Assembly (NCBI GenBank): GCA_903844645.1
Contig: CAIMUP010000006.1
Coordinates: 2,055 to 66,054 of the forward strand
From: an uncultured Bacteroidota bacterium
Lineage (GTDB): Bacteria; Bacteroidota; Bacteroidia; AKYH767-A; JABDAW01
Reading direction: 5' to 3'
Length of the DNA: 64,000 nucleotides
Below, piece after piece: positions 1,674-38,900 of this stretch (the stretch's first letter is position 1; each line of letters begins with the position of its first letter). The notes beneath the pieces are model-generated. The model was not told the origin of the DNA. It made no database searches and saw only the letters and a program-made list of their open reading frames with translations. The translations under genes were made by a program, and so were the position numbers.

Positions 1674-2990
1674 ATGGCAGAAGTAATAAGAATGCCCAAG
1701 ATGTCTGACACGATGACAGAGGGCGTTATCTCGAAGTGGTATAAAAAGGTAGGGGACAAAGTAAAGAACGGTGAAGTCCTTGCCGATGTAGAAACAGATA
1801 AAGCAACGATGGAATTGGAATCCTATTCCGAAGGGACCTTGTTGCATATCGGAATCAAGGAAGGACAGGCAGTTCCGGTGGATGGAGTGATTGCCGTTAT
1901 CGGGAAGGAGGGAGAGGATTATAAAGCATTATTGAATGATGCCACTCCTAAAACCGAAGCCAAGAAAGAAGAGCCAGCAAAAGAAGCTGATAAACCAAAA
2001 GAAGAAGCAGCTCCAGCAAAGGAAGAGAAAAAAGATGATAGTAAGGATGCTAAGAAACATGCTGTTGCTGAAGAAAAGAAACCAGTTGAAGTAAAGAAAG
2101 AGCCAGTTGAATCAACCTCTGATGACAGGAAGAAAGCCTCTCCTCTTGCGATTTCATTAGCCAAAGAAAAAGGAATTGATTTGAATAAAGTCATTGGCAC
2201 TGGCGAAGGTGGACGTGTTGTAAAACGTGATATTGACTGGTATAAACCATTCATTGCACCGGCAGGAATGCTTACTCATCATGATAAAGTTGATAAGGAA
2301 AGCTATGACGAAGTTCCAATCTCTCAAATGAGAAAAACGATTGCGAAGCGATTAAGTGAAAGCAAATTCACCGCGCCGCATTTCTATTTGACGATGGAAA
2401 TTAACATGGACAATGCAATGGTAGCGAGAGAGAGCATTAATGCTGTTGCGAATACCAAAATTTCATTCAACGACCTTGTTATTAAAGCCTCGGCAGCGGC
2501 TTTGAGACAGCATCCTAAGGTAAATTCATCGTGGTTGGGGGATAAGATTCGCCATAACCATCATATTCATATCGGGGTGGCGATTGCTGTTGAAGAAGGC
2601 TTGTTGGTTCCTGTTGTTCGCTTCGCGGATAACAAGACATTAACCGAGATAGCAGCCGAAGTAAAGGTATTTGCACAGAAGGCGAAGGATAAAAAACTAC
2701 AACCGACGGATTGGGAAGGCAATACCTTCACCATTTCTAACCTCGGCATGTTTGGCATTGACGAATTCACGGCTATTATCAACACTCCCGATGCTTGTAT
2801 ATTGGCGGTCGGGGCTATTAAGCAGGTGCCGGTGGTGAAAGATGGCATTATCGTTCCTGGGAATGTGATGAAGGTTACCCTTTCATGCGATCACCGCGTG
2901 GTGGATGGTGCTACCGGATCTTCTTTCTTGAAGACGCTGAAATATTTCCTCGAGAACCCTGTTATTCTATTGGGGCAGGCGGCTATTTAA
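1674..2990 (+). CDS. pdhC: dihydrolipoamide acetyltransferase (E2) of the pyruvate dehydrogenase complex
   Basis: An N-terminal lipoyl domain ('VETDKATMELES') is present. It is followed by an Ala/Pro/Lys-rich linker, an E3-binding region and the catalytic 'SCDHRVVDGA' motif. Confidence 0.9.
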   Translation: MAEVIRMPKMSDTMTEGVISKWYKKVGDKVKNGEVLADVETDKATMELESYSEGTLLHIGIKEGQAVPVDGVIAVIGKEGEDYKALLNDATPKTEAKKEEPAKEADKPKEEAAPAKEEKKDDSKDAKKHAVAEEKKPVEVKKEPVESTSDDRKKASPLAISLAKEKGIDLNKVIGTGEGGRVVKRDIDWYKPFIAPAGMLTHHDKVDKESYDEVPISQMRKTIAKRLSESKFTAPHFYLTMEINMDNAMVARESINAVANTKISFNDLVIKASAAALRQHPKVNSSWLGDKIRHNHHIHIGVAIAVEEGLLVPVVRFADNKTLTEIAAEVKVFAQKAKDKKLQPTDWEGNTFTISNLGMFGIDEFTAIINTPDACILAVGAIKQVPVVKDGIIVPGNVMKVTLSCDHRVVDGATGSSFLKTLKYFLENPVILLGQAAI

Positions 2991-3026
2991 TAGCTTCTGC
3001 GTGGATAGGTTCACCCTATTATTCTT

Positions 3027-3722
3027 ATGATCAAGATTCTCATCGTAGTTGCTACCGAAGGCGAGGTAAAGTTGATTACAGAACACCTGGAGGTTATCAA
3101 TATCACCAATAAGTTCTTGAAACAATACCGATTCCAACAGGTGGAGATAGATATTCTGATCACTGGCGTGGGGATGGTGGCTACTGCCTATCATTTAGGT
3201 AAGCAATTGGCGCATTCTTTCTATACGATGACCTATAATATAGGCGTTTGCGGCAGCTTTATAAAGGATATTCCGCTCGGGACGGTGCTGCACGTTTCTT
3301 CTGATGCCTTCCCCGAAACAGGAGCAGAGGATGGCGTCGAGTTTCTATCTATTTTCGATATGAAATTAATAGGCAAGGATCAATTCCCATTCAAAAACGG
3401 CGAATTATTCTCCTATCATCCGCCGCAATTGCATGCTTTGAATAAAATAAAACAGGTGCGGGGAATCACAGTGAATACAGTCCACGGAAAGGAGGACAGT
3501 ATCCAACAAATCATTAACCGAAACCATCCCGAAGTAGAGACGATGGAGGGGGCTGCCTTCCTTTATTCATGCCTGATGGAGCAATTGCCGTGTGCACAAA
3601 TCAGAGCCGTGTCGAACTATGTGGAAAGGCGCAATAAAGACAGTTGGAAATTGGAATTAGCCATCGAAAACCTGTGCCACGTATTCATGGACATCCTTTC
3701 TGAAATCGCTTCGAGCAATTAA
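3027..3722 (+). CDS. mqnB: PNP/UDP-phosphorylase-family nucleosidase, likely futalosine hydrolase of the menaquinone pathway
   Basis: The fold resembles MTA/SAH-nucleosidase ('KILIVVATEGE', 'ILITGVGMVATAYHLGK', 'VETMEGAAF'). The 231-aa size and Bacteroidota context fit MqnB. The assignment is by family resemblance only. Confidence 0.5.
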   Translation: MIKILIVVATEGEVKLITEHLEVINITNKFLKQYRFQQVEIDILITGVGMVATAYHLGKQLAHSFYTMTYNIGVCGSFIKDIPLGTVLHVSSDAFPETGAEDGVEFLSIFDMKLIGKDQFPFKNGELFSYHPPQLHALNKIKQVRGITVNTVHGKEDSIQQIINRNHPEVETMEGAAFLYSCLMEQLPCAQIRAVSNYVERRNKDSWKLELAIENLCHVFMDILSEIASSN

Positions 3723-3762
3723 ATACTTTTATTCGCGATAGCTTTTATCGTATTCATCGTCG

Positions 3763-4367
3763 TATTGTTGCACCGCAAGGGCGGATGCAATCATACCACG
3801 ATGAAATTAGTATTAAGGATGGAATAAAACATGATGATGGCGAAGTTTTTCATCAAAAAGGGCAAACAAGGTATCAGAATCCCGACCAAAGCGATGCTTC
3901 TGAAAGGTTTTTCAATGGAGATGGCACCCATTACTATGGTATAAAAAATCAAAACCATAGTTATTGTTACTAAAAGGTATCTTATTGTTACTAAAAGGTA
4001 TCTTTTTGTTACTAAAACGTAAGTTATTGTTGCTATAAGGTAAGTTATTGTTGTTATAAGGTAAGTTATTGTTGCTATAAGGTAAGTTATTGTTGCTATA
4101 AGGTAAGTTATTGTTGCTATAAGGTAAGTTATTGTTGTTATAAGGTAAGTTATTGTTACTAAAAGGTATCTTATTGTTACTAAAAGATACGTTTGAGTTT
4201 TTTTGGCATATGTTTAAGCTACTATTTGTATCCCAATCACTTCAGCCACCATCGAAAAACCTTCCAGAAGCATTGCCTCGGTCGTGATTGTTAATCCTTG
4301 TTTGCCCTGTTTGATACTTTTTTCATCATCTTATTATGATTGCATCCGCTTTGGCGGTGCAACAATA
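3763..4367. mobile_element. MITE-like non-autonomous element. It has ~33-bp terminal inverted repeats enclosing a 21-bp tandem array.
   Basis: The left TIR 'tattgttgcaccgcaagggcggatgcaatcata' is at 3763-3795. The right end at 4335-4367 is 'tatgattgcatccgctttggcggtgcaacaata', whose reverse complement matches the left TIR except for the central 5 nt. The element exactly fills the gap between two convergent genes. Confidence 0.4.
3959..4192. repeat. tandem array of ~11 copies with a 21-bp unit ('aaggtaagttattgttgctat' and variants)
   Basis: Direct reading of the sequence shows a 21-nt periodicity. Copies diverge at 1-3 positions. Confidence 0.9.
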
Positions 4368-8418: not shown

Positions 8419-8670
8419 CCATCCGCGCGGATGGAACCCATCTGGAGCATCCGACATCTCCCAGCCACGCGGATGGAACCCATCTGGAGGAAGGAATGCC
8501 TCCCAGCCGTGCGGATGGAAGCCATCTGAAGGAAGGAATGCCTCCCAGCCACGCGGATGGAAGCCATCTAAAGGAAGGAATGCCTCCCAGCCCTGTGGAT
8601 GGAAGTTGTCGGAAGGAAGGAATACCTTCCAGCCACGCGGATGGGAGCTATCGAATGCTCCCTATCGAAT
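8419..8670. repeat. tandem array of ~6 copies with a 42-bp unit ('cccagccacgcggatggaagccatctgaaggaaggaatgcct')
   Basis: It was read directly and lies between the porin start and the nuoL stop. ORF-track entries 8291..8722 and 8376..8672 are stop-free artefacts of this array. Confidence 0.9.
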
Positions 8671-10569
8671 AAAATTATACAATAATATTGCGATGATTCC
8701 GGCTACCATCACGAAGATGTAAAAGCCGATGGCACCAGTCTGGACAAGGCGTAATGTTTTGCCTCCCCAGATAACTGTCTTGCCAATGGAGTTTACGAAA
8801 CCATCTATCATTTGTATCTCGATGATGTTGTTGAATTGCTTTCCAAACCAGTTGATCGGAGCAACAATGATGGCATCGTATAGCTCGTCTATGTAATATT
8901 TGTTGTAGATAAGATTTCTCAATGCGGGAGTCTGTTTATCATCGGCTGGAGGTACAGATGCCTTTTTGATGTAGCGGTTCATTGCCCACAAAACAATCAA
9001 TGCAAGAACTACTACTGCAACAATGATGATGGTATATTCAGCAAATTCGGAAGGGGCTTTTGCTTCGCTTTTTAAATCAGAGAATTCAAATATCGGGGCA
9101 AGATATTGACTTAAGAAATGATGTTCGCTCATGATCCTTGGCATTCCAAGAAAGCCGCCAACAGTGGAAAGGATAGCAAGAATAACTAATGGAATAGTGA
9201 TTGTTGCAGGACTTTCGTGAAGATGATGTTTCTGTTCTTCGGTGCCTCGGAAGGTGCTGTGGAATGTCAGGAAGAAAACGCGGAACATATAAATCGCTGT
9301 CAGAACGGATGTGAAACTTAATACGATGAAGATAATATTGGAGAATGGCCCGATGGTTAATGCAAGGATTTCGTCTTTAGAAAAGAATCCTGCGAATGGA
9401 GGAACGCCTGAAATGGCTAATGTTCCAAGGAGGAAGGTGATGTAGGTAATCGGCAGATATTTCTTTAATCCACCCATCTTTCTTATGTCTTGTTCGCCGC
9501 TCATAGCATGGATTACGCTTCCTGCTCCGAGGAATAATAAGGCTTTGAAAAAGGCATGTGTGGTGAGGTGAAACATTGCAGAACTATATCCTCCAACACC
9601 TAAAGCCACAAACATATATCCTAACTGGCTTACCGTTGAATATGCCAATACTTTCTTGATGTCATTCTGGAATAAACCGATAGTGGCGGCAACAAATGCA
9701 GTAAATAACCCAACAAATAAAACAATTGTTTGTGTGATTGGTGCGAGTGTGTAAAGCACGTTGCTACGAGCAATCATATAGATACCTGCCGTTACCATTG
9801 TCGCTGCATGGATTAATGCAGAAACCGGTGTGGGACCAGCCATTGCATCAGGCAACCATGTGTATAAAGGTATCTGCGCGCTCTTGCCCATTGCTCCAAT
9901 GAAGAGCAATAATGTTATCACAACTAATACTGAATCTCCTGATGCAAATCCTTTAGCTCCTTCAAAAACTTCTGCATAATTTACGCTGCCGAAGGTCATG
10001 TAGATTAAGAATATTCCCAATAAAAATCCTAAGTCGCCGATGCGATTCATGATGAAAGCCTTTTTGGCGGCATCATTGTAATCCTGATTCTTAAACCAGA
10101 ATCCGATTAATAAATAAGAACATAAACCTACGCCTTCCCAACCGATGAACATGATTACATAATTCGATCCTAATACCAACAATAGCATAGAAAAGACAAA
10201 CAAGTTGAGGTATGCAAAGAACCTTGTGAATCCTTCATCGTGAGACATGTATCCAATTGAGTAAACATGTATCAGGAAACCAACTCCGGTAATAATCAAA
10301 ACCATCAGCATAGACAATTGATCTATCAAAAAAGAGAAAGAAATATGTAATGTTCCGGAGTTAATCCAATCGAATAAATTTATGGTTGTTGCCTTATTTT
10401 CTCCGCTTAAAAACCCAAGGAAAATTGTTACAGCAATGATGAATGAACCGAGAACCGTTCCACTGGCAATGATTCCAGACAATGATTTAGTCAGGAATTT
10501 ATTTCCCAATCCTAAAATCAGGAAGCCTATCAAGGGTAATAGTGGTATCAGCCAAGCGTTTTGTATCAT
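8662..10569 (-). CDS. nuoL: NADH-quinone oxidoreductase subunit L
   Basis: The 635-aa antiporter-like subunit starts 'MIQNAWLIPLLPLIGFLILG'. It has the long C-terminal amphipathic helix region typical of NuoL. Confidence 0.9.
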   Translation of the reverse strand: MIQNAWLIPLLPLIGFLILGLGNKFLTKSLSGIIASGTVLGSFIIAVTIFLGFLSGENKATTINLFDWINSGTLHISFSFLIDQLSMLMVLIITGVGFLIHVYSIGYMSHDEGFTRFFAYLNLFVFSMLLLVLGSNYVIMFIGWEGVGLCSYLLIGFWFKNQDYNDAAKKAFIMNRIGDLGFLLGIFLIYMTFGSVNYAEVFEGAKGFASGDSVLVVITLLLFIGAMGKSAQIPLYTWLPDAMAGPTPVSALIHAATMVTAGIYMIARSNVLYTLAPITQTIVLFVGLFTAFVAATIGLFQNDIKKVLAYSTVSQLGYMFVALGVGGYSSAMFHLTTHAFFKALLFLGAGSVIHAMSGEQDIRKMGGLKKYLPITYITFLLGTLAISGVPPFAGFFSKDEILALTIGPFSNIIFIVLSFTSVLTAIYMFRVFFLTFHSTFRGTEEQKHHLHESPATITIPLVILAILSTVGGFLGMPRIMSEHHFLSQYLAPIFEFSDLKSEAKAPSEFAEYTIIIVAVVVLALIVLWAMNRYIKKASVPPADDKQTPALRNLIYNKYYIDELYDAIIVAPINWFGKQFNNIIEIQMIDGFVNSIGKTVIWGGKTLRLVQTGAIGFYIFVMVAGIIAILLYNFIR

Positions 10570-10571
10570 TC

Positions 10572-10898
10572 TTAATTCTCTAAATTTAATGGAATTTCAA
10601 TACCTGTTTTCTTTATTGTTTCAGTAAATGGATCACCATCCTCAAAGTAGGTAGCGTTGTAGGTATGCGGCTCGATTTCGTAAAATCGAGTACAAGCTCT
10701 TGATATTTTGTGAATATCGGCAAGTGAGCCACCATTAAAATCATCTGATACCAAAGCTAAATCAATATCACTCCACTGATTTGCTTGATTTCTTGCATAA
10801 GAACCAAACAAGATTACCTTCTTAAAAGTAACGCCCAAATCATTACATGCTTTGATGTAATCCTTTATATATTGCATTAGAGTTTCTTGCGTAAACAT
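10572..10898 (-). CDS. minimal nucleotidyltransferase (MNT, NTP_transf_2 family; MntA-like)
   Basis: Pol-beta-like motifs 'LFGSYARNQANQWSDIDLALVSDD' (GS...DxD) are present. The protein is 108 aa. Its stop lies 2 bp from the nuoL start. Confidence 0.75.
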   Translation of the reverse strand: MFTQETLMQYIKDYIKACNDLGVTFKKVILFGSYARNQANQWSDIDLALVSDDFNGGSLADIHKISRACTRFYEIEPHTYNATYFEDGDPFTETIKKTGIEIPLNLEN

Positions 10899-10910
10899 GG
10901 GTCAATTGTT

Positions 10911-11138
10911 TTAATTTCTAACACAACTATCTTCAATTATTGGTTCAGTAAAATGTGTTCTATAATATTCTCTCGCAAATTCTAAATCATCAAAGGGGCC
11001 AATCCAAACTCCATGTTTGCCCTTTTCAGCATCCTTTATCATACCTTGTCCATTTTGACAAAATCCACAATCAGACTGGTGAATTTTAGGACCATTAAAA
11101 TCTTTTGCTTGCCAGTTTTCATAGATATAATAACTCAT
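10911..11138 (-). CDS. hypothetical 75-aa protein, possibly metal-binding
   Basis: '...HQSDCGFCQNGQG...KHGVW...AREYYRTHF...DSCVRN' contains a CxxC. The intergenic gaps to both neighbours are only 6 and 12 bp. AT-rich codon usage is shared with the neighbours. No family was recognised. Confidence 0.5.
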   Translation of the reverse strand: MSYYIYENWQAKDFNGPKIHQSDCGFCQNGQGMIKDAEKGKHGVWIGPFDDLEFAREYYRTHFTEPIIEDSCVRN

Positions 11139-11144
11139 AATATT

Positions 11145-12104
11145 TTAATTTTTAATTTTATTTATTTCCCAAACAAGGTCATTAACCCCTGTCCAAACAC
11201 TACTTTCAAGACTTGAAATTGAATCCATAACTCCTATAATATTATTACTTAAATCCCCCATAGCATTGAGCAAATCCTTTTCAAATTTGCTATTAAAAAT
11301 CCCGAGTTTTTCAAATTCATTGTAGATAGTATAAAATAAGATTAACTCATTTCCTATTAAAGCATTTATCATTTTTATTGATATTTCATGGAGCGATTTT
11401 AGGTATTGATTTTGCTTTTCAAAGTTGTCTAATATCATTGAAACATTGTTATCAATATTTATCTCTCTCAACATAATTCTCTGCTTTTCCATTGAATTTT
11501 GTTTTGCTTTCAAATACTCATTTAATTTTACAAAAGGTAGTATATATTCTTTGTCAATTTGTTTTTGATTCTGTAAAAGTATTTCATTAAAACTTCTGAT
11601 TTCAGGTATCGTATTCGCTGTTAGGAATGTACTGACTTGTAATTGCAATTGATCTTCTTTTTCTTTGATTTCTACTAATTCTTTTTTTTCTAAAATGGAT
11701 TCCATTAATTCAAGATTTACTAAATACGATTCCATCATTTCTTCCAATAATACAAATTCATCTGAAGATACAATTCCGTAATGTGTACCATTATACAGGA
11801 ATGAATATTGAATTGAAAAAAGTTTGTTATATTTATGAAATGTTATAGTACTAAATGATTGAAACGGAATACAAATTGGATAATCTACATTTGGCCAACC
11901 AACAAAATATTTATTAGAAATCTGCCATCCAGATTTCTTAAACGAAAAAATATAATTGCCTAATTTGTTTATCCAGCCTTCTCTGTATATTTCAAACTGT
12001 TTCTTTAAATAGACTTCATTATTTTCAAAAAATTTATTAAAGAAAACCTCATTGAATTCATTAATGCTTTTTAGCTTTTCAAAATCAGATTCTTCAAAAT
12101 CCAT
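11145..12104 (-). CDS. hypothetical 319-aa cytoplasmic protein with an aromatic-rich N-domain and an alpha-helical/coiled-coil C-domain
   Basis: The ORF is long and AT-rich, with no TM segment and no signal peptide. No family was recognised. It is the first gene of a tightly packed three-gene unit. Confidence 0.6.
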   Translation of the reverse strand: MDFEESDFEKLKSINEFNEVFFNKFFENNEVYLKKQFEIYREGWINKLGNYIFSFKKSGWQISNKYFVGWPNVDYPICIPFQSFSTITFHKYNKLFSIQYSFLYNGTHYGIVSSDEFVLLEEMMESYLVNLELMESILEKKELVEIKEKEDQLQLQVSTFLTANTIPEIRSFNEILLQNQKQIDKEYILPFVKLNEYLKAKQNSMEKQRIMLREINIDNNVSMILDNFEKQNQYLKSLHEISIKMINALIGNELILFYTIYNEFEKLGIFNSKFEKDLLNAMGDLSNNIIGVMDSISSLESSVWTGVNDLVWEINKIKN

Positions 12105-12181
12105 AACTAATATATTTTTATTTTATGATATTTAAGGCTGCTAAAGTATAAAAAAAGCCATTTATAAGGTAAATCACCTTG

Positions 12182-12575
12182 AAAACACCGTCGCTGGACT
12201 TCCTCCAACGGGCGTTGGAATCATCCCAACGGGCGTTGAAACCGTTCCAATGCCTTTTGGAGCCTCCCAATGAGTCTTGAAACCATTCTAACGTCCGTTG
12301 AAACCATTCCAACGGGCGTTGGAACCGTTCCAACGCCTTTTGTGCCTCTCCAACGGGCGTTGAAACCATTCCAACGGGCGTTGGAGGAAGTCCAACGACG
12401 GTCAAAAACCCTTCAAATCGCATATTCGCACCGCCGAATCCAATATTCTTACCGTCGAATCGCATTCTCACACCGCCGAATCCAATATTCGCACCGTCAA
12501 ATCGCATTCTCGCACCGCCGAATCCAATATTCACACCGTTGAATCGCATTTCTTTATGCCCGAATCCAATATTAT
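12182..12575. repeat. two consecutive 21/42-bp tandem arrays
   Basis: The first unit is 'ccaacgggcgttgaaaccatt', flanked by inverted repeats at 12187-12210 and 12379-12402. The second unit is 'cgcattctcgcaccgccgaatccaatattcgcaccgtcaaat'. ORF-track entries 12118..12585 and 12270..12542 are artefacts of these arrays. Confidence 0.9.
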
Positions 12576-12578
12576 CCA

Positions 12579-12911
12579 TTACCACTTCAATTTATTCAAA
12601 AGATTAATGTCAATAGACTTGATATTCCGGAATATCATCACGATTATCGCTAATCCTACCGCTACTTCTGCTGCCGCTACTACCATGATGAAGAATACAA
12701 AGACCTGTCCTGCGGCATCTGAACGGTAGGTCGAGAAGGCTGTAAGGAGAAGCGTTGCGGCATTCAGCATCAATTCAATGGACATAAAAATAATGATGGC
12801 ATTCCGTCTGATTAATACCCCAAGAACTCCGATAGAAAAAAGTATCGCACTCAAATAAATATAGTGCTCTATCGGGATGGTTTTGGCGATATGTGTAATC
12901 TGGTCTGTCAT
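12579..12911 (-). CDS. nuoK: NADH-quinone oxidoreductase subunit K
   Basis: The 110-aa 3-TM protein ends in '[15 protein letters not shown]...[14 protein letters not shown]'. Confidence 0.9.
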
Positions 12912-12917
12912 GTTTGA

Positions 12918-13445
12918 TTATAATTCAATGGGTTCTTTGTCGCGTTTTCCGAGCATCACTGCGCCTACCATTGCCGAGAGAAATAATATGGATGATAATT
13001 CAAATGGCAGCAAGAAATCGCTGAACAATACCTTCCCCAAATTCTTCACCAATCCCACTTGATTGTTATAAGTCAAACCATCCGATAATCCCGCGCCCAC
13101 CACTTGTTCGGTAGCACCGCGGAAGGTTCCTATTAATGTCAACATTAATATGCCAGAGGCTATTACTCCCGCGAGTTTTAGCAAGGATGATTTATGTGGT
13201 TCTAATTCTTTATTCAAATTCAAAAGCATCACCACGAAGAGGAATAAAACCATAATGGCGCCTGCATAAACGATAATATGTACCACCGCCAAAAACTGTG
13301 CATTCAGCAAAATATATTGCCCGGCGATAGCGAAAAATGTCATCACCAAAAATAAAACACTATAAACAGGATTCTTACTAAACACAACCATCAGCGCGCT
13401 GAAGATGGCGAGGAATGCAAGAAAATAGAAGAAATAAGGTGCCAT
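12918..13445 (-). CDS. nuoJ: NADH-quinone oxidoreductase subunit J
   Basis: The 175-aa membrane protein has a NuoJ-like 'VYAGAIMVLFLFVVMLLN' segment. Confidence 0.9.
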   Translation of the reverse strand: MAPYFFYFLAFLAIFSALMVVFSKNPVYSVLFLVMTFFAIAGQYILLNAQFLAVVHIIVYAGAIMVLFLFVVMLLNLNKELEPHKSSLLKLAGVIASGILMLTLIGTFRGATEQVVGAGLSDGLTYNNQVGLVKNLGKVLFSDFLLPFELSSILFLSAMVGAVMLGKRDKEPIEL

Positions 13446-13452
13446 AAATCAA

Positions 13453-13995
13453 TTAGTCATTAAGATGCACATTAGTATCTTGTCGTTTCGAGACATCAAC
13501 GCGGTTTTCCATAGTCTCGACCAATTTATCTTTTCCATAAATAAAATCTGCACGATTATACATCGAAGGAACGGTTTCGGTGGTGAGGAATATCGCTTCC
13601 TTGGGGCAGGCTTCTTCGCATAATCCGCAGAAAATACATCGCAGCATATTGATTTCATAAACCTTTGCATATTTCTCTTCGCGATACAATTTCTCTTCGC
13701 CAGGCTGGCGTTCTTCGGCAATCATGGTGATGGCTTCTGCGGGACAAGAAACGGCGCAAAGTCCACAAGCAGTGCAGCGTTCAGCACCTTTATCATCACG
13801 TTTGAGGACATGCAATCCACGATAAACGGGAGCAAATTCTCGCGTCACTTCGGGATACCTGATGGTAGGCGATTTCTTGAACATGTGTTTAAAAGTAATG
13901 ATCAAGCCATTAAAAATGGCGGGTAAATACATCCTTTCGATGAGCGTCATCTGCCTTTTCTTCACCTGTACCGACCTGTTTGTTAGTGGTTGCAT
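13453..13995 (-). CDS. nuoI: NADH-quinone oxidoreductase subunit I (2x[4Fe-4S])
   Basis: Two ferredoxin motifs are present, 'CTACGLCAVSCP' and 'CIFCGLCEEACP'. The true start may be the internal Met at 13950. Confidence 0.9.
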   Translation of the reverse strand: MQPLTNRSVQVKKRQMTLIERMYLPAIFNGLIITFKHMFKKSPTIRYPEVTREFAPVYRGLHVLKRDDKGAERCTACGLCAVSCPAEAITMIAEERQPGEEKLYREEKYAKVYEINMLRCIFCGLCEEACPKEAIFLTTETVPSMYNRADFIYGKDKLVETMENRVDVSKRQDTNVHLND

Positions 13996-14235
13996 CTTAT
14001 TTTTTATTTTGAAGCCGCAAATCTAATAAAATCTCTTTAAAAGAAAGATGATATAAATCAGAAAGTCCTCCGTACCGATAGATCGGTTTTACCGAAGGCC
14101 TTTTCATTATTCCCAACATTTCGGGCATTAAATGAAAATAAATCGCGTTTTCAACGGGGAATTGGGAAAAATAAATTTTCATGCCCCCGACTGAAATTTT
14201 TTTATTGGCTATAAAAGAGTCATCATTTTTAAAAA

Positions 14236-14322
14236 AAACATGTTGTCGGCATCAGAAAACATGTTTTCGGCATCGGAAAACATGTTGTCGGCATCGGAAA
14301 ACATGTTGTCGGCATCGAAAGA
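14236..14322. repeat. tandem array of ~4 copies with a 21-bp unit ('aaaacatgttgtcggcatcgg')
   Basis: It was read directly. ORF 14209..14691 (which encodes a 'DADNMFS' heptad repeat) is an artefact of this array. Confidence 0.85.
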
Positions 14323-14412
14323 CACCTGTTTCACTCCTTTATATATAGGCAGCTTTTTGGGGATGCCGGAAACGATTTGGAAAATGTAGCGGAAATGGGG
14401 TATATTTGCGGG

Positions 14413-18910: not shown

Positions 18911-18941
18911 AAAGTTCCTTAAATGTTGGTTAAATTATTTT

Positions 18942-19026
18942 GAAAACGGGTTGTCCTTTTCAGAAAACGGGTTGCCGTTTTTTGAAAACGGGTTGCCGTT
19001 TTTGGAAAACGGGTTGCCGTTTTTAA
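18942..19026. repeat. tandem array of ~4 copies with a 21-bp unit ('gaaaacgggttgccgtttttt'), each unit a 7-bp-stem hairpin
   Basis: It was read directly. It lies 30 bp upstream of the start codon at 18910. Confidence 0.85.
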
Positions 19027-22103: not shown

Positions 22104-22355
22104 ATCCCCTGAAACATGTTTGAAGGGCTTTGAAACATGTTTGAAGGGCTTTGAAACTATTCTTGAGGGCTTCAAGAATAGTATGTGGAGAGCAAATACT
22201 ATTATGTGGAGAGGAAATACTATTATGGGGAGAGGAAATACTATTATGTGGAGAGCAAATACTATTATGGGGAGAGCAAATACTATTATGTGGAGAGGAA
22301 ATACTATTATGTGGAGAGGAAATAATAGTATGTGGAGAGGAAATACTATTCTTGC
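22104..22355. repeat. two abutting 21-bp tandem arrays joined by a palindrome ('catgtttgaagggctttgaaa' x3, then 'tatgtggagaggaaatactat' x9)
   Basis: It was read directly. The junction 'ctattcttgagggcttcaagaatag' is palindromic. ORFs 22099..22392 and 22151..22399 are artefacts of these arrays. Confidence 0.9.
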
Positions 22356-26603: not shown

Positions 26604-26770
26604 TGAGATTTCCTGAGTGAAACCCCATATTTCCTGAGTGAAACCCCATATTTCCTGAGTGAAACCTGAGATTTCCTGAGTGAAACCCGAGATTTCCTGA
26701 GTCAAAACCGAGATTTCCTGAGTCGAAAATCGTCTTTTATCAAAGCAAAAAGGGTTTCGACTCAGGAAAT
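26604..26770. repeat. tandem array of ~6 copies with a 21-bp unit ('atttcctgagtgaaaccccat') and a terminal inverted copy
   Basis: It was read directly. The cap pair is 'tttcctgagtcgaaa' at 26714-26728 and 'tttcgactcaggaaa' at 26755-26769. ORF 26454..26807 is an artefact of this array. Confidence 0.9.
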
Positions 26771-28725: not shown

Positions 28726-28924
28726 AAAAGTCATTATTAATTGAAATTGGCAGCAACCAACTACCGGTTGGCAGCGCAGGAACTTCTAATTTTTGGTTTC
28801 GAGGAATCGGTACTAGGGGTGGAATTTTTTTATTGTCAGGATATTTTTTACTTTTGCCCCCGTAGATAAATCGGGGATGCCGAAAACCGAATAGAGTAAG
28901 CGCAAAAAATTAAAGAATAATACA

Positions 28925-31900
28925 ATGAATAAAATGAAACAAGCAACCATGAACCTAAGAACAGTCGGGAAAAGCGTTCTTCAGATGTTACTTATTATCG
29001 GCTTCACGCTGGGGATTAATACCATGGCGAATGCGATGAAATTAAGCAGCAGCATTGCCGCGACCATGTCCGCAATGAGAACACCCTGCCCTCCGCCAGA
29101 TCAGCCGGATGTGATCACCGGGAATGTTGTAATCTGTCCTCCCGGATCGCCGCAAACGTACTCTATTCCAGTCGTTACCGGAGCGACGGATTATACCTGG
29201 ACCTTGCCTTCGGGATGGACCGGAACTTCCACAATAACGACCATTGATGCTACCGCAGGAACGGTTGGCGGAACCATTACCGTTACCGCGAATAACGCTT
29301 GCGGAAGCAGTATTCCGCGAACCTTGGATGTGGTAGTGAATACGGAATTATTTCCGGTAATCACCGCGATGGGTCCTACTTCTTTTTGCTTTGGTGGTTC
29401 CGTCATCTTGGATGCAGGGGCAGGCTACGCTTCCTATACCTGGAATACAGCTGGGACGGATGAAACCATCACGGCAACTGCCAGCGGCACCAGCTCTGTT
29501 ACCGTTACCGATAATTATGGATGCCTTGGCGTGGCTACGCAAGATATTTTTGCGAATGCATTGCCGACACCGCATATACTTACCTTCGCCGATTCGACAT
29601 TTTGTTTAGGCGATTCTGTTCAATTGGAATCAGGGAATTTTAATTTGAATGCACTCGTTCCTTATACCAATTGGAGTTGGAGTTCGGGAGAAATCACAGA
29701 GGTTGTTACCGAGCATGCACAAGGAATTTATACCGTTACCGTTACCGATATGAATGGCTGCACGGGAAGCAAATCGGTACATGTTACGGTAAATCCACAT
29801 CCTACTCCGACGATTACCTCGGCAAGTCCTTTTACCTCTTGTTTAGGCGGTTCCATTGTTTTGGATGCAGGAGTTTTTCCGCAATATCATTGGAGCACTT
29901 CTAACATCGGAGAAACCATTACTGTATCAGCTACAAATACCTATTCGGTAACCGTAACGAATAGTAATGGATGTACCGGAACGGCTTCGGTGAATGTGAA
30001 TTTATTAGCAGGACCAGCACCTACGATTACTGGGATTTTATCTTTCTGCTCCAATACCCCAGGCACCACGTTGGATGCAGGAACTTATACTTTATACTCC
30101 TGGAGTAATGGCGGAACAGACGAGACAACAACGGCTACCACTGCGGGAACATATACCGTTACTGTAACAGATAATGTGGGCTGTACAGGAACGAATTCCG
30201 TAACCGTAACGATGAATACATCGCCTACACCAAGTATCACCCCAAGTGGTGCTACCAGTTTCTGTGCTGGAGGATCAGTATCCTTAGATGCGGGGATTTT
30301 TGCCTCCTATCTTTGGAGCAGTACCGCCACAGGAGAAGCAATAACAGCTACCGCAAATGGAACTTACATTGTTACCGTTACCGATATGAATGGATGTACC
30401 GGTTCGGCATCTCAAATGGTTATTGTCAGTCCAGCTATTAATGCTGTTATCACTGCAAGTGGGGCTACCACTTTTTGTGCGGGAGGCTCTGTAACATTAG
30501 ATGCAGGGACTTATACATCATACTCTTGGAGTAATACTGCCACCGATCAAACAATCATGGTTGCTGCTTCGGGAATTTATTCGGTAACGGTTACTGATAA
30601 TATCGGATGTACAGGAATAGCTTCGCAGATTGTTACCGCAAATACCAATCCTACACCGACCATTACTCCGAGTGGTTCTACCACTTTTTGTAGCAATACC
30701 TCAATTACTTTAGATGCCGGAGTTTACTCTTCTTATTTATGGAGCAATGCGGCAACAGATGAAATAGTAACTGCCTCGTCCAGTGCAATGTGGACAGTAA
30801 CGGTTACCGATGCGAATGGATGTACCGGAACAACTTCTGTTACCACCACATTCAATGCAGCACCATCACCAGTAATTACTCCAAGCGGACCGACCACATT
30901 TTGTAGTGGAGGATCAGTAACATTGGATGCTGGAGTTTATTTATCTTATATCTGGAGTAATACCGAAACTAATGAAATGACAACAGTAAATACAAGTAGT
31001 AATTTTATGGTTACTGTTACCGCCGCCAACGGATGTACCGGAGCGACTTCGCAAATGGTTACAGCTAACCAAAATCTCAATGTAAATATATCCGCAAGCG
31101 GTCCAACTTCATTTTGTGCCGGGGGGACGGTTATCTTAAGTCCTGGATTTTATTTGAGTTATCTTTGGAGTGATGCAAGTACCGATGCAACATTAATGGT
31201 TAATACCGCAGGGACTTATTCTGTAACTGTTACCGATGGGAATGGATGTACAGGTGTAGCTTCACAAGGAGTCATTATTAATTCAAATCCAACACCAACA
31301 ATTACCCCAAGCGGTTCAACAACATTCTGTAGTAATAACTCTATAATGTTAGATGCAGGGGTTTATGCTTCGTTCATCTGGAATACTTCCGAAACTAATG
31401 AAACAATTACCGCATCAACAGCTAATACATTCAGTGTTACCATTACTGATAATAATGGATGTACCGGAATAGCTTCTATCATAACAACGGTGAATATTGC
31501 CCCTTCTATTTCAATCGCAGCGAGTGGTTCAACAACCTTCTGTAATGGAGGTTCGGTAACTTTAGATGCAGGATCAGGTTTTACTATTTATACTTGGAAC
31601 AATACAGGGACTGATCAAACAACAATTGTAATGACTGGAGGAAATTATATTATAACTGTTACAGATGCAAACGGATGTACCGGAGCAGCAAGCCTCATGG
31701 TTACTGTTAATGCAAGTCCTACCCCTTTGATTACACCGAGTATTTCTGCCAATATCTGTGCAGGCACTTCTGAAACATTGGATGCTGGGGTTTATGCAAC
31801 ATACCTTTGGAGTACAACTGGAACAGATGAGATGATTTCAGTTAATGCATCAGGGAATAACAGTGTAACTGTTACTGATATGAATGGATGTACAGGATCT

Positions 31901-34900
31901 GCTTCATTGATAATTACGGTAAATACAAACCCAACTCCTTCAATAACTCCAAGTGGATTTACAACATTTTGTGATGGAGGTTCTATAACCTTGGATGCAG
32001 GAGTTTATGTTTCCTACATTTGGAGCAATACAAGCACCAATCAAATGACTACAGTAATGACAAGCAGTAATTACATAGTAACTGTTACAGACATTAATGG
32101 CTGCACTGGAATTGCTTCTCAAATGGTTGCCGTTAATTCTAATCCTATTACTATAATAACCGCTTCTAGTTCCACTACTTTCTGCATTGGGGGCTCTGTA
32201 ACTTTAGATGCCGGTGTATTTGCATCTTACATGTGGAGCAATGCTGGAACAGATGAAACAACAATAGTAACAACGGGTGGCATCTATTCTCTAACAATAA
32301 CTGATATGAATGGTTGCACTGGAATAGCTTCACAAACAGTTACAGTAAATCAATTACCATTACCAACCATTACCTCAAGCAACTCAACTACGTTCTGTGC
32401 CAACGGTTCAATCATATTGGATGCTGGAATGTATTCGACTTATCTGTGGAGTAACACAGAAACGGATGAAACTATTATTGTTAATTTATCGGGTACTTTT
32501 TTAGTAACTGTAGCTGATGGAAATGGTTGTACAGGTATAGCTTCAATAACAACAACAGTTAATGCAAATCCAACTCCTTCCATAACACAAAATGGAGCTA
32601 TTCTTAATACAGGTATTTATTCTTCCTACTTATGGAGTACCGGAGCCACTACAGACTCTATTAATGTCTTGGTAAATGGTACTTATACCGTTACTGTTAC
32701 TGATGCGAACGGATGTACTGGTTTAGCTTCAATGGTAGTTTCGAGTACGGCTTGTGCAGATGTTGGTGCTGGTGCAGCTTATATAACAAATCAGCTTGAC
32801 AATACCGTATCAGTTATTAATATTGCAACAAACACTGTTACAGCTACAATCCCTGTTGGTAATCATCCTGTTGGAGTATCAGTTAGTCCAGATGGAACTA
32901 AGGCATATATTGCGAATGAATTTGGTCCTTCAATAAGTGTAATAAATACTGCTACAAATACTGTTTCGGCTACAATTAGTGTTAGTGGTGCTCCTTATGG
33001 TATAGTAGTAAGCCCAGATGGAAGTAAAGTATATGTTGCAAATGTCAGTGCCAATTCAGTAAATGTAATAAATACGGTTTCAAACATTGTTTCTACTACA
33101 ATTCCAGTTGGTCTTTCTCCTGAAGGAATAGCGGTGAGCCCTGATGGGACAAATGTATATGTTGCGAATCAAAGTGATAATGCAGTAAGCGTAATAACTG
33201 CTGCAACAAATACAGTATCAGTTACAGTACCAGTTGGTGCTGATCCTTTTGGTTTAGTTGTCAGCCCTGATGGAAGTAAGGTATATGTTACTAATGAAAC
33301 CGGAGGTACAGTAAGTGTAATAACCACTGCTACGAATACTGTTTCAGCTACAATTAATGTTGGTATTGCTCCGCAGGGTATATCCATGAGTCCTGATGGG
33401 AGTAAGGCGTACGTTGTGAATGGAAATTCTAATTCAGTAAGTGTAATAAATACAGTTACCAATACTGTTTCAGCTACGATTCCGGTTGGTAGCGACCCTT
33501 GGGGTATATCTGTAAACTCAGATGGAAACATGGTATATGTCGTAAATGATAACTTTACTGGTACGGTAAGTGTAATAGACACTTTAACCAATACTGTTAC
33601 AGCAACAATTACTGTTGGTTCTGGTCCTGCTGGGTTTGGTAATTTCATTTCTGCTTCCACATCCCTTACCCCTGTTATCACTGCTAATGGTAATACAACT
33701 TTCTGTCAAGGTGGTTCTGTTACTTTAGACGCAGGAAGTTATACTTTTTACCTTTGGAGTAATGGTGCAACAACAGAAACAATCACAGCCATTGACAGTT
33801 CCAATTATTCTGTAACTGTTACTAATGTAAATGGTTGTACGGGAGTTGCCTTGCAATTGGTTACTGTTCATGCAAACCCAATTCCATCAATAGCTGCCAA
33901 TGGACCGACAAGTTTCTGTAATGGAGGTTCTGTTACTTTGGATGCAGGAAACTATACATCATACAATTGGGATGATGGGGACTTTACAGAAACAACAATT
34001 ATAATGAATAATGGATTATCATCTGTTACAGTAACAGATGGAAATGGGTGTACTGGAGTTAGTTCTCAAATGGTAACAGTAAATCCTAGTCCCACTCCAA
34101 CTATAAGTCACTCCACTCCAACAACATTCTGTAGTGGAGATTCTGTAGTGTTAGATGCTAATGTTTACCTTTCTTACATATGGAGTACTTACGCTACAAC
34201 AAGAAAGGTTACTGCTACAACAGGTGGCACTTTTTCAGTTACCGTTACTGATGTTGACGGATGCACAGGGGTTACTTCAATAAATGTAATTGTACATAAT
34301 AACCCTAATCCAATAATTACAAATACGGGGAGTCTTACTTTTTGTGACGGTGGATCAGTAATATTAGATGCTGGTATTTCTTATACCTCATACTTATGGA
34401 ACACTGGGGAAACCGATCAAATGGAAACTGAATTCTCTGGAGGTACTTATTTCGTTATTGTTACTAATGGTAATAACTGTACGGGTAGTGCATCAATAGA
34501 TGTTGTAAATAATCCATTACCTAATCCAGTCATAACACCCAATGGTCCGGTGAACTTCTGCGTAGGAGGTTCTGTTACTCTTGATGCAGGTATTTTTAAC
34601 TCTTATATTTGGAGTACTACTGAAACAACCCAATCAATTGCAACAACAAATAGCGGAACATATGATGTTACGGTAACTGATATTAATGGTTGTACAGCCA
34701 CTGCTTCACAGGTAGTAGTAGTTTCATTAAATATTACATTCAGCATTACACCAACTGGTCCGACTACCTTCTGTAGTGGTGGTTCTGTAACTCTTGATGC
34801 AGGTGTTTACAATTCCTATAATTGGAGTACATCTGAAACAACAGAAACAATTTCCGTTTCAACTTCAGGAACATATACTGTAACTATTACTGGCAATAAT

Positions 34901-37900
34901 GGCTGCTCGGGTACATCTTCAATAACAACAGTGGCTAATCCTTTACCAACACCTTTAATTACAGCAAGTGGTCCGATTAGTTTTTGTGCGGGAGGCTCTG
35001 TAACATTAGATGCGGGAATATACACTAACTATATTTGGAGTACTACAGCAACAACCCAGACAATTAATTCTAATAATAATGGGAATTATTCGGTGACAGT
35101 TACTGACGCAAATGGTTGCACCGGAAGTACATCTCAAACTATTTCAGTTTATGCTAATCCTATTCCTTCAATAATCTCAAATAATCCGACCACATTCTGT
35201 ATCGGAAGTTCAACGACCTTGGATGCTGGATCTTTTTCTTCTTATGTATGGAGTTCTTCTGAAACTTCTGAAACAGTAACTGTATCTACTGCTGGAACTT
35301 TCATGGTTACTGTTACCGATTCTCATGGCTGCACAGGATCAGCTTCCCAATCTATAATTGTAAACACATTACCAACTCCAATAATAACGGCGATTGGTCC
35401 GACTAGTTTTTGCAATGGTGGTTCAGTTAATTTGGATGCCGGTACTTTTGTTTTTTATAATTGGAGTTCTGCTGCTACTACTGAAATTATTACTGCCGCT
35501 ACCAATGGAGTCTTTGGTGTTACTGTTACGGACAACAACGGATGCACTGGAATCACATCGCAAGCTGTAACAGTCTATAGTAACCCTAATCCTACAATTA
35601 CACCTAATGGTCCTACGAGTTTCTGTGATGGAGGAATGGTTGATTTGAATGCAGGTTCTTTTGTTTCGTTTGCTTGGAATACCGGTGAAACAGATCAAAT
35701 CGTTACCGAGTATTCTAATGGTACTTATCTGGTAACTGTTACTGATAGTCATGGATGTACGGGAGAAGGTTCAATACTTGTAACTGTTTATTCGCTTCCG
35801 AGTCCGACAATTACTCCAAGTGGACCAACAGTATTTTGTAATGGAGGTTCTGTTACGCTTAATCCAGGAAGCTATGCGAGTTATTTATGGAGTACTGGTG
35901 CTACAACTGCTTCTATTTCTGCTACTATAGCAGGCACTTATTCTGTAACCATTACAGACAATCATGGTTGTACAGGATCTGCTTCACAAACGGTTACCGT
36001 TAATCCATTACCGATAGCATCTATTACTCCAAACGGACCAACTTCATTCTGTCAGGGTGGATCTGTAGTATTGGATGCCGGAAATGCGCTTACCTATCAT
36101 TGGAATACAGCAGCGACAACCGAATCTATCACAGTTACCGTTAATGGTGTATATTATGTAACCATATCGAATGGTTTCAATTGCACTTCCGTTACTTCGC
36201 AAGTGGTTACTGTAACGACCAATCCTATTCCTGTAATATTTGCTAATGGTCCCGTAACATTCTGTGCCGGAGATACGGTAAGTTTAGATGCCGGTGTATG
36301 GTCTTCTTACCTTTGGAGTACAGGAGCAACTACTGAAACGATAACTGAAACGATTTCCGGGACATATACTGTAACCGTTACCAATATCGGGGGGTGTACG
36401 GGTTCTACATCGAGCATTGTTACTGTAAATACAAATCCTACTGCTGCTATTACTCCAAGTAGTACTACTACATTCTGTCAGGGTGGTTCTGTATTCTTAA
36501 ATGTGGGTGCTTATGCTTCATTCATTTGGAATACGGGGGCTACCACGGGAATAATTTTGGCAACAAACAACGGTACTTATTCAGTAACGGTTACTGATGT
36601 GAATGGATGTACTGCTATCGCTTCAATCAATGTTACTGTGAATGCAAACTCTACTCCTGTGATTACGCCAAGCGGTCCTATTTCCTTTTGTGCGGGTGGT
36701 TCGGTGAATCTTGATGCTGGTTCTTATGCTTCTTACCTTTGGAATACGGGGTCAACGATTCAAACGCTTTCAAACATTAATTCGGGCGGCACATATATGG
36801 TTACTGTTACGAATGGAAACGGTTGTACAGGGACAGCATCCATACTTATTACCGTAACGGTGATTCCTACTCCGAACATTATTGTTAATGGTCCGCTGAC
36901 ATTCTGTAGTGGTACCGATTCTGTTCAATTTGATGCCGGAAACTTTGCCTCTTATTCCTGGAGTACGGGTGCTACTACCCGAAGAATTGTTGTATTCACC
37001 AGCGGAACGTACATTGTTACGGTAACGAATGCCGGTGGATGTACAGGATCATCAAATCGGGTGGTAACGGTGAATCCTACCCCGAATCCTACCATCGTTC
37101 CGAACGGATCGGTTACCTTTTGTATCGGAGGTTCCGTCAATCTGGATGCAGGAGTCTATCCTACTTATCATTGGAGCACAGGTGCGACGACAGAAACCAT
37201 TAATAATATCAATACATCCGGTACTTACATGGTAACAGTAACCTCGGCTGCCGGATGTTCTGCCACGGCATCACAAGTAGTTACCGTTAATGCTTTACCG
37301 ACACCGATTATCACGGCGAATGGACCGATCATGTTCTGCATCGGGGGAAGCGTAACGCTTAATGCGGGAGTAGGATATACTAACTACATTTGGAGCACCG
37401 GAGCGACGACCAATACCATTAATGTATCGGCAGCAGGAACGTATCATGTAACGGTTACGAACAACAATGGCTGTACTGGGTTTACATCGCAAACAATTAC
37501 CGTCAATCCGCTTCCTAATCCAACGATTACGGCTAACGGTCCCCTGACATTCTGTAGTGGCGGCAACATCATCTTAGATGCCGGCAATTGGTCCACTTAT
37601 CTTTGGAATACAACGGCTACAACGGAGACCATTACGGCTTCTTCTTCAGGAACATACAGTGTTACCATTACGAATAACAACGGTTGTTCAGCCTCCACGG
37701 CTCAAACGGTTACCGTCAATCCTCTTCCGACCGTTACCGATACTTCTACCCTCTCAAATGTATGTATTCAGTGGGCTATCTTCAATCTTAACGGCGGCAT
37801 TCCGGCAGGCGGAACGTATTCAGGAATAGGAGTGGTTTTAAATCAGTTCAATCCGAACCTTGCGGGGCTTGGAACGAGAACGATTACCTATATTTATACC

Positions 37901-38227
37901 GATGGAAACGGTTGTACGAACTCGGCGACGCACAATCTGATCGTGAATCCTTGTACCGACGTGCCAACGATTACCGATGCCGATTTCGTAACGCTATTCC
38001 CGAATCCTAACGACGGTAATTTCACCGTTAAGTATTCTGTTTCGACTGCCGTTACGGCAATCCGAGTAGTGGATATTACCGGAAGGATCGTCCTTATCCA
38101 CACCTTATCCGGCATTGAGGGAAGCCAGGAAATCAATGCCTCCGACCTTGCGAAAGGAGTGTATTATTACGAAGTGATGACCACCGATGCCATCCTTGCG
38201 AAAGGCAAAATGGTGATCGTAAAATAA
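28925..38227 (+). CDS. giant 3100-aa T9SS-secreted adhesin-like protein. It has ~35 tandem ~80-aa Ig-like (HYR/SprB-like) repeats, an embedded YVTN-type beta-propeller, a distinct penultimate domain and a T9SS type-A sorting domain.
   Basis: A signal peptide is present. Repeats follow the pattern '[24 protein letters not shown]...ITA...GTY.VTVTD.NGCTG..S'. The propeller region at 32750-33650 carries '...[25 protein letters not shown]...SPDGSKVYV' about 8 times. The C-terminus is '[15 protein letters not shown]...[11 protein letters not shown]...KMVIVK'. Confidence 0.85.
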
Positions 38228-38319: not shown

Positions 38320-38900
38320 GGAGATGATGGGTGAAATCAGGTTTGATACCCGATATTTTCCTGAAATCATTCGTTTTTTTCCTGAAATCACTCCTATTTT
38401 CGGGAATTTGAGGCGTGATTTTGGGAATTTGATGCATCATTCCAAAACCGTTACTCGTCTATTACACGCATTATCAAGTCATTTTCACGAAACAGGTCGT
38501 CATAAAAAGTAAACACATCGTCTTTTCGATGAAACTTATCGTAGTTTCGATGAAACTGGGTGCAGTTTCAATGCAACTGGGTGCAGTTACGATTAAACTG
38601 GGTGCAGTTTCAATCAAACTGGGTGCAGTTTCATTGCAACTGGGTGCAGTTGCATTGAAACTGCACCCAGTTTCATCGAAACTACGATAAGTTTCATCGA
38701 AAAGACGACAAGATGCATTTAAAAGACGATAAGATGCATCGGAATGACGAATAAAAAACTTGGAATGACGAATCATTTAAGAGGAATGACGAGTCTTTTT
38801 CTTGGAATGATTCGTAGTTTTCTTGGAATGATGTGTCTTTTCTTTGGAATGATTCGTATTTGATTTGGAATGACGAATAGATGGATCAGAATGACTTATA
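38320..38900. repeat. compound region of at least three different 21-bp tandem arrays, with an orientation flip through a perfect palindrome
   Basis: The unit families are 'cctgaaatcattcgttttttt', 'tcgatgaaactgggtgcagtt' and 'cttggaatgacgaatcattta'. The perfect inverted repeat 'aactgggtgcagtt/gcattgaa/aactgcacccagtt' lies at 38638-38673. ORFs 38318..38512 and 38474..38776 are artefacts of these arrays. Confidence 0.9.

Follow-up and report, generated by a model that had tools for sequence, protein, structure and literature searches.

A probable variable accessory island in the nuoK-nuoL spacer of an uncultured Bacteroidota bacterium, with a putatively orphaned MNT-type nucleotidyltransferase

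We analysed a 64,000-nt stretch of DNA from an uncultured Bacteroidota bacterium (contig CAIMUP010000006.1 of assembly GCA_903844645.1; this whole stretch is called the window below) with a focus on three genes that lie between nuoK and nuoL of a respiratory operon: a 319-aa open reading frame (ORF; p319), a 75-aa ORF (p75) and a minimal nucleotidyltransferase (MNT). All genes of the locus run in the order nuoI, nuoJ, nuoK, spacer, p319, p75, MNT, nuoL:

13453-13995, minus strand: nuoI
12918-13445, minus strand: nuoJ
12579-12911, minus strand: nuoK, 110 aa, left conserved flank (PF00420, E=2e-28)
11145-12104, minus strand: p319, 319-aa ORF (960 nt)
10911-11138, minus strand: p75, 75-aa ORF
10572-10898, minus strand: MNT-type minimal nucleotidyltransferase, 108 aa (PF01909, E=4.9e-10; PF18765, E=1.7e-7)
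8662-10569, minus strand: nuoL, 635 aa, right conserved flank (PF00361, PF00662; 87-93% aa identity to clade relatives)

The gene order, the coordinates and the co-directional minus-strand layout had been proposed from the letters of the DNA alone (the sequence-only reading), and they were recovered from the ORFs and their spacers, which measure 6 nt between p319 and p75, 12 nt between p75 and MNT and 2 nt between MNT and nuoL. The spacer between nuoK and p319 is 474 nt long and nearly all of it is made up of two abutting tandem arrays with periods of 21/42. The AT-richness noted at the same time was borne out by a composition check: compared with a baseline of 42.9 +/- 2.5% for the 37 other window ORFs taken as genes, all three inserted genes are outliers in G/C content (p319 25.8%, z=-6.8; p75 32.5%, z=-4.1; MNT 33.6%, z=-3.7). 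An ORF of the length of p319 is far beyond chance in DNA of 26% G/C content (for 960 nt the chance is estimated at ~3e-13 for one reading frame). Neither the ORF list nor Pfam revealed transposase, integrase or recombinase domains in the cassette, and an Rfam scan gave no match inside or near it. Scans of the cassette for sigma-70 promoters and terminators did not exceed shuffled controls, the models used not being made for Bacteroidota promoters.

The sequence-only reading had taken contiguity of nuoK and nuoL as the norm and the three genes as a horizontally acquired insertion between them, and synteny agrees with both. Among 80 GTDB Bacteroidota loci that we collected via nuoL (57-65% identity), the nuoK-nuoL gap of those with both genes is 3-260 bp, except in L080 (2002 bp) and L081 (467 bp), and an MNT match was found in none of the 80 loci. 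In the closest relative found (L112/L113; nuoL 92.9% aa, nuoK 98.2% aa and ~83% nt identity) the junction reads nuoK-TAA-GAGGAAT-ATG-nuoL, i.e. a clean empty site of 7 nt. Because nuoK and nuoL are just 7 nt apart in the nearest relative, the insertion is real; the empty site and the foreign composition support the view that the segment is a lineage-specific, compositionally foreign insertion of horizontal origin.

Related metagenome contigs carry MNT homologues at the same site. These are 78-92% identical to the MNT of the window and lie directly before nuoL wherever nuoL is visible, with 2-8 nt from the MNT stop to the nuoL start (window included), and their upstream neighbours vary. In L094, nuoI-J-K is followed by a HEPN gene (130 aa) and MNT, with no extra cargo; in L095/L098 the order is nuoJ-K, array, Mrr-type restriction enzyme (300 aa), HEPN, MNT, nuoL; and in L090-93/L097 it is nuoI-J-K, arrays, a 224-aa gene, a 149-aa gene, a 51-aa ORF, MNT, nuoL. 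The HEPN genes of the relatives belong to PF05168, the Mrr protein is hit by PF04471 as well as by PADLOC's model for type IV restriction, and the 51-aa ORF of L090 holds the C-terminal 29 residues (102-130) of HEPN. The 224-aa and 149-aa proteins of the L090 cargo (2634-3763; also present in L091-93 and L097) have no Pfam or PADLOC match; by eye, the former has a lipoprotein-like N-terminus and the latter a GxxxxGKS-like motif. The same HEPN-MNT family also adjoins gatA in L099. In L096 (281-669) the HEPN gene beside the MNT nearest to that of the window (91% identical) is split over two frames, which reflects either pseudogenisation by frameshift or, in this single contig, a mistake in sequencing. 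L111 (1-1096; from the sample of L002) reads HEPN 3' end, MNT (92% vs the window), HEPN2, MNT2 and HEPN start, where HEPN2 is 30% identical to the L095 HEPN, MNT2 is 30% identical to the window MNT and the last HEPN start matches the first 18 L095 residues at 94%; either pairs have piled up in tandem here or the assembly has looped. In the relatives HEPN comes before MNT and overlaps it, which is the opposite of the usual order: in a published census MNT lies 'almost always' 5' of HEPN, and PF05168 is listed as HEPN-T type (PMC3710099). The Rx4-6H motif is present in none of the five HEPN partners from relatives. Since these partners lack Rx4-6H and lie 5' of MNT, the toxin-antitoxin (TA) status of the ancestral pair is presumptive.

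The DNA homology of the window to its relatives ends at the nuoK stop (12579) and restarts, against L090, L094, L095 and L096, at 10914-10917, ~18 nt 5' of the MNT start. Two conserved sequences mark the edges of the slot in between:

12117-12153, minus strand: left slot edge, conserved 37-nt segment TTTTATACTTTAGCAGCCTTAAATATCATAAAATAAA; 30/37 nt identical to L090 2431-2468, single copy in the window
10880-10917, minus strand: right slot edge, HEPN 3'-end remnant that reads ...IKTIDPCLRKKL and a stop codon in the HEPN frame; overlaps the p75 stop and the MNT start

In the remnant, 10/12 residues are identical to residues 119-130 of the L095 HEPN (tblastn). About 12 HEPN codons are left in the window, most of them overlapping the MNT start, and tblastn found no other HEPN match in its 64 kb. 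The 37-nt segment also occurs in L095 (L090 and L095 are identical at 38/41 nt) and includes a sequence close to the Bacteroidota -7 box (TAnnTTTG), which L090 matches perfectly; from this we infer that the segment may be a promoter. The swapped cargo of the window (~12116 to 10918) corresponds exactly to p319 and p75. As the homology restarts inside the HEPN 3' end, p319 and p75 have displaced HEPN. MNT is found at the same site in relatives with differing upstream cargo; it is the older resident, and the proposal of one acquired three-gene module is not supported.

The earlier assignment of this last gene to the nucleotidyltransferases of the HEPN-MNT class is upheld by its Pfam matches, by its motif and by its HEPN-paired closest relatives. 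The catalytic motif GS...DxD is intact (GSYARN...DIDLAL). MNT matches PADLOC PDC-S09 (PDLC04903) over its full length (E=6.1e-11, residues 6-101 on profile positions 9-107 of 108); this is a phage-defence candidate family without a curated cut-off, and to our knowledge it has no tested function. The NCBIfam MntA_antitoxin model, whose cut-off is 60 bits, aligned to residues 26-54 only and gave 32.4 bits, and the HalB model gave 20.3 bits at a cut-off of 190. The closest homologues in a search of 5.8 billion proteins are 73-91% identical. Versus the relatives, the ratio of nonsynonymous to synonymous substitution rates (dN/dS) of MNT is 0.036-0.092, with dS saturated, and it is 0.055 between the two HEPN-less lineages; for comparison, nuoK has a dN/dS of 0.037. 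In an alignment read by eye, ~3 residues are peculiar to the window MNT, compared with ~6 in the HEPN-linked L096. Judged from these values MNT is under strong purifying selection, and its gene context marks it as a putatively orphaned antitoxin-type enzyme without a HEPN partner.

For p319, a HMMER scan of 1.84 billion representative proteins returned 354 matches at E<=0.001 (26 of them at E<=1e-10), mostly over residues 165-315; a word-indexed homology search with p319 found only p319 itself. A subset of ~400-aa proteins aligns over almost the full length, and one of these, from a Bacteroidota metagenome-assembled genome (MAG), is annotated just as hypothetical protein. Pfam, NCBIfam, PADLOC and PHROGs gave nothing meaningful for p319 or its family, and PDB sequence searches yielded just coiled-coil or chance matches. 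In 16 members of the family, p319 not among them, 'Baculo_PEP_C' was hit, which looks like helical-repeat noise. The earlier statement that the unknown proteins belong to no recognisable family thus stands for curated libraries, but not for p319 in view of its 354 HMMER matches. AlphaFold2 modelled p319 with a pLDDT of 80.8 with an alignment (37 from the single sequence); the model combines a beta-rich, putatively PH-like domain at the N-terminus (~50-112, with a further helix), a helix of 50 residues and, at the C-terminus, a helical bundle (~165-318). Foldseek on this model gave PH-like hits at E ~0.02-0.05 only; p319 differs from bacterial PH-domain (bPH) proteins in having no Pfam bPH match and a C-terminal bundle without a named counterpart. 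The conserved positions are mostly hydrophobic, together with K193, K201, Q231, S242, D265 and E275, and include no His or Cys. This pattern favours a binding or structural role over an enzyme, and p319, with its predicted fold, would be a helical-bundle protein that probably is no enzyme and associates with a membrane or a ligand.

In the nearest p319 homologues, 1-3 N-terminal transmembrane helices replace the PH-like domain. The family as a whole (P0124-P0272) shares a ~150-aa helical domain, and each of the three members whose source or context is known belongs to Bacteroidota. Its consensus includes ...YIQKFVKIS.YLK...LKNQIHTY.LLVFHS..MI...DLITFYEIYE.FD.LGVFNS.WENE..., and its N-termini vary between transmembrane helices, a PH-like domain and an EF-hand-like DxDGNG loop. 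No MNT and no relative of p75 lies near p319 homologues in any of the four neighbourhoods inspected (L104, L106-108, L109, L110), at least three of which place the homologue among Bacteroidota or housekeeping genes. The 75-aa gene beside the best homologue (L104) was considered as a relative of p75 and rejected, the sequences being unrelated. No matches to the p319 family were found in IMG/VR, INPHARED or PLSDB. p319 and p75 recur as identical proteins in several independent assemblies of metagenomes.

For p75 two relatives could be detected, giving three family members for alignment. One (P0003, 50% identity) is encoded at a different locus, L087, in a related organism where 21-bp arrays occur as well, and the second is an interrupted ORF on a Mesorhizobium plasmid; apart from the latter, IMG/VR, INPHARED and PLSDB contained no match. 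H20, C24, C27 and a GPFD motif are invariant and a C-terminal Cys is kept. The invariant His and Cys residues suggest metal binding, and from its sequence p75 is probably a small metal-binding protein. The curated libraries searched with p319 gave nothing meaningful for p75; DUF6233 (PF19746) matched one of the three family members weakly (E=0.0046), and not p75 itself. No MNT was found near the p75 homologues in two neighbourhoods (L087, L105). As the inspected homologues of p319 and p75 stand in unrelated neighbourhoods without MNT, the idea that the three genes form a novel MNT-linked toxin or defence module is not supported.

The sequence-only reading had further described the array next to nuoK, with terminal inverted repeats (TIRs), as bounding the cassette. 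Tandem Repeats Finder (TRF) resolves it into two arrays:

12413-12573, no strand: array A, ~3.2 copies at period 42 or ~6 at period 21
12204-12397, no strand: array B, period 21, units with the palindromic core CCAACGGGCGTTGG; inverted repeats I1-I3 lie inside

The inverted repeats lie within one array because the repeat units are palindromic, and nothing in them pairs with the other end of the cassette, so this claim fails. Array A is ~78% identical to the array at the same place in L090/L097, and the nuoK-p319 spacer is 62 nt shorter in the strain variant L004. In the window as a whole we found 21 period-21 arrays (3.2 kb, 5% of the sequence), and 43 of the 45 TRF rows have a period that is a multiple of 21. 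Arrays with a period of 21 (or 42/63/84) occupy the following positions:

3959-4193, 8419-8652, 12204-12573, 14235-14324, 18938-19025, 22110-22350, 26605-26728
38356-38876, 43708-43804, 45831-45964, 48044-48168, 57368-57539, 60651-60833

Of the 15 intergenic regions that measure >=150 bp, 13 hold such arrays, be the flanking genes convergent, divergent or in tandem, so that the arrays are no peculiarity of the cassette. Unit sequences differ from array to array, some having palindromic cores, and ORFs called on arrays are probably spurious. A length of 21 bp corresponds to two helical turns or seven codons. Arrays after nuoK, partly homologous, also occur in relatives with other cargo, and the trait is shared by the metagenomic relatives L087, L090-L099 and L103 but rare in ~1 Mb of other Bacteroidota loci. 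By this distribution the arrays are a genomic trait of the lineage, not cassette ends. No description of genome-wide 21-bp arrays was found in the searchable literature.

Taken together, we favour, with a probability of roughly 0.65, a reading in which the nuoK-nuoL spacer is an accessory island, variable and built up in layers, rather than a module of three genes. A HEPN (PF05168) and MNT (PF01909) pair has been resident in the spacer of several relatives, MNT directly before nuoL, and the slot between nuoK (with the arrays and the 37-nt segment) and MNT takes varying cargo. The slot states are HEPN only, Mrr with HEPN, the 224-aa and 149-aa genes with a 29-codon HEPN stump, and p319 and p75 with ~12 codons. 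The HEPN-MNT pair may have behaved as a TA-like selfish pair, in which destruction of HEPN is tolerated and loss of MNT only is not; because of this presumed asymmetry MNT would survive as an orphan. The orphan may still be an active nucleotidyltransferase, likely giving immunity against a related HEPN in trans or serving another target. p319 and p75 would be later, AT-rich, horizontally acquired cargo with roles independent of MNT; their transcription would be that of the operon, possibly started from a promoter within the 37-nt segment. Gain, loss and swap would probably proceed by homologous recombination via the conserved nuoK and nuoL flanks.

The nuo genes group as ((window, L112), (L090, L095)), with L094 outside. 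Between the window and L090, MNT is 81.6% and the nuo genes are 80-83% identical at the nt level; between the window and L094 the values are 79% and 75-78%. Divergence of nuo and MNT is broadly, if roughly, parallel, and the simplest reading of the sequences would be an ancestral HEPN-MNT insertion, turnover of cargo and loss in the L112 lineage. The same outcome would, however, be expected if whole alleles were exchanged by homologous recombination through the two nuo flanks, and the comparison covers 5-6 contigs. Several observations weigh against the island as we describe it. The nearest relative by nuo genes (L112) lacks the whole insert, so that an ancestral pair requires either a clean deletion or recombinational movement; the L095 MNT is more diverged from that of L090 than the nuo genes are (81% vs 87-91% nt); and the toxin status of HEPN is assumed for partners that have no canonical Rx4-6H and stand upstream of MNT. 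The neighbourhoods inspected number four for the p319 family and two for the p75 family, and a conserved orphan MNT right after new genes fits a re-partnered system too.

Such re-partnering would mean that p319 and/or p75 is a new toxin or defence effector in the HEPN slot, controlled by MNT via nucleotidylylation or a nucleotide signal, as in type VII TA or Hailong-like systems. The tight co-directional packing with 6- and 12-nt spacers would suit this, as would the fact that p75 occupies the exact former place of HEPN, that MNT, although HEPN is lost, is intact and strongly constrained by purifying selection, that it matches the defence-candidate family PDC-S09 and that in another allele a restriction enzyme sits in the slot. 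Nevertheless we consider it unlikely, for MNT predates the cargo at the site, in all contexts seen, relatives of p319 and p75 are accompanied neither by MNT nor by one another, PADLOC has no hits for either protein, and the HalB score is 20 bits against the cut-off of 190. The L090 lineage, moreover, also keeps MNT after truncation of HEPN, with entirely different cargo. The more specific proposal, in which HEPN gave way to a new toxin or membrane-active effector that the retained MNT restrains, is rather improbable; if the toxin had been swapped, MNT antitoxins could re-partner with unrelated effectors. Genes in the slot differ among the relatives and no housekeeping family could be assigned to the two unknown proteins, so that the sequence-only reading is weakened rather than formally refuted.

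Strong purifying selection, the conserved position and the 2-8 nt that separate the MNT stop from the nuoL start could also point to a domesticated enzyme, i.e. HEPN and MNT as a two-subunit, kanamycin nucleotidyltransferase-like enzyme in which MNT has a cellular role, possibly in expression or modification of the NADH dehydrogenase, explaining its fixed place before nuoL. HEPN partners without Rx4-6H and a gene order reversed relative to the usual MNT-then-HEPN (PMC3710099) would be in line with this. We regard it as distinctly unlikely: the nearest relative lacks MNT, the 80 GTDB loci gave no match to it, the composition remains AT-rich in all relatives, and the MNT, although below the NCBIfam MntA cut-off, matches no housekeeping family either. 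The same pair also adjoins gatA in L099 and is repeated in tandem in L111, which is what would be expected of a mobile TA pair. That MNT and the two unknown genes are instead a non-functional relic heading for deletion is very unlikely. HEPN is lost in the window and in L090 and frameshifted in L096, and the whole insert is absent from the nearest relative, but a 319-codon ORF is intact in DNA of 26% G/C content, MNT has a dN/dS of 0.04-0.09 with ~3 window-specific residue changes, and the p319 and p75 proteins are conserved without change across independent assemblies. Extremely improbable, finally, is a transposon-like or miniature inverted-repeat transposable element (MITE)-bounded element whose TIRs come from the 21/42-bp array. 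Inverted repeats are detectable in 12204-12402, the DNA is AT-rich and a Y1-transposase-like gene lies in the same spacer of L080; the repeats, however, are internal to one array, derived from its palindromic units, and leave the ends unpaired, the cassette has no transposase, integrase or recombinase, and such arrays fill most long intergenic regions and accompany other cargo in relatives. The transposon or TIR reading of the cassette was rejected on the grounds of these internal repeats and window-wide arrays.

Compared with type VII HepT/MntA (HEPN-MNT) systems, the locus shares a minimal Pol-beta-type nucleotidyltransferase with GS...DxD, closest relatives of MNT that adjoin and overlap a HEPN gene, and a small, AT-rich pair found in more than one chromosomal context. 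It differs in that the window has no HEPN gene but only the 12-residue remnant (L094, L095/L098 and L099 have HEPN), that the partner in relatives is PF05168 (HEPN-T) without Rx4-6H and not DUF86, that HEPN precedes an MNT which the census places 'almost always' 5' (PMC3710099), and that the window MNT reaches 32 bits against the NCBIfam MntA cut-off of 60. As in orphan (solo) antitoxins or anti-addiction modules, an antitoxin-type gene is kept after loss of the toxin gene, here in 2-3 lineages; there is, however, no HEPN target for trans action in the 64-kb window, and an immunity role is suggested by analogy. With Hailong (HalA effector and HalB) the locus has in common a nucleotidyltransferase beside a helical protein with membrane-anchored nearest homologues, but MNT is half the size of HalB and far below its cut-off (20 vs 190 bits), and association with a nucleotidyltransferase is not conserved among the p319 homologues inspected. 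Variable accessory or defence hotspots between core genes offer conserved flanks, an empty-site allele and alternative cargoes (type IV restriction enzyme, TA-type pair), as seen here, and no integrase would be needed if exchange proceeds via flank homology. In contrast to them, this site lies inside a co-directional respiratory operon and not between operons, and the p319/p75 cargo of the window has no match to a known defence protein (PADLOC). The locus would be a TA-anchored accessory hotspot, a known kind and a fairly ordinary one.

Inserts in this part of the nuo operon are not rare across the phylum, where small selfish ones recur. A DUF433-DUF5615 pair lies between nuoJ and nuoK in Rufibacter, PF05635 '23S rRNA intervening sequence' four-helix-bundle proteins lie in the nuoJ/K/L spacers of four MAGs, an ECF sigma factor and a MaoC-like gene are inserted in the same operon part in Hymenobacter, and a Y1-transposase-like gene with two unknowns lies between nuoK and nuoL in L080, a Spirosomataceae MAG. 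They resemble the insert of the window as short same-strand accessory genes in nuoJ-nuoK or nuoK-nuoL spacers, but their gene families differ and include no relatives of MNT, p319 or p75. Inserts in nuo spacers of other Bacteroidota are located as follows:

L024: 4691-5286
L081: 5577-5957
L051: 5302-5670
L065: 5192-5566
L072: 5223-5594
L080: 4218-5496
L030/L039: nuoJ-nuoK gaps

In the window nuoIJKL stands isolated: nuoH is missing upstream, and in place of nuoM or nuoN a BBP2 porin and an ammonium transporter lie downstream. Genes similar to nuoM and nuoN follow nuoL in L098 (7351-9969); in L090 (6157-6813) and L112 (2018-4378, 8006-9880) genes with type IX secretion system (T9SS) tails follow it, and L112 has feoAB upstream. 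The surroundings of the nuoIJKL fragment are rearranged within the clade. Elsewhere in the window, the Rfam model RF02914 (DUF805b RNA motif) scored 37.9 bits, which exceeds its gathering score, at 28870-28902 on the plus strand, just 5' of a 3100-aa ORF (28925-38227) that has an internal 126-bp repeat at 32819-33490.

The locus offers a natural example of how a TA-type pair between core genes becomes a landing pad for the swapping of cargo, in which the toxin-side gene is repeatedly destroyed and the antitoxin-type gene retained. It also flags two uncharacterised protein families, the helical-bundle family of p319 and the small His/Cys family of p75. The genome-wide 21-bp arrays of this organism may prove more unusual than the island. 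If the orphan MNT acts on its new neighbours, the locus would be a case of partner-switching in MNT systems; otherwise it would be an ordinary accessory island.

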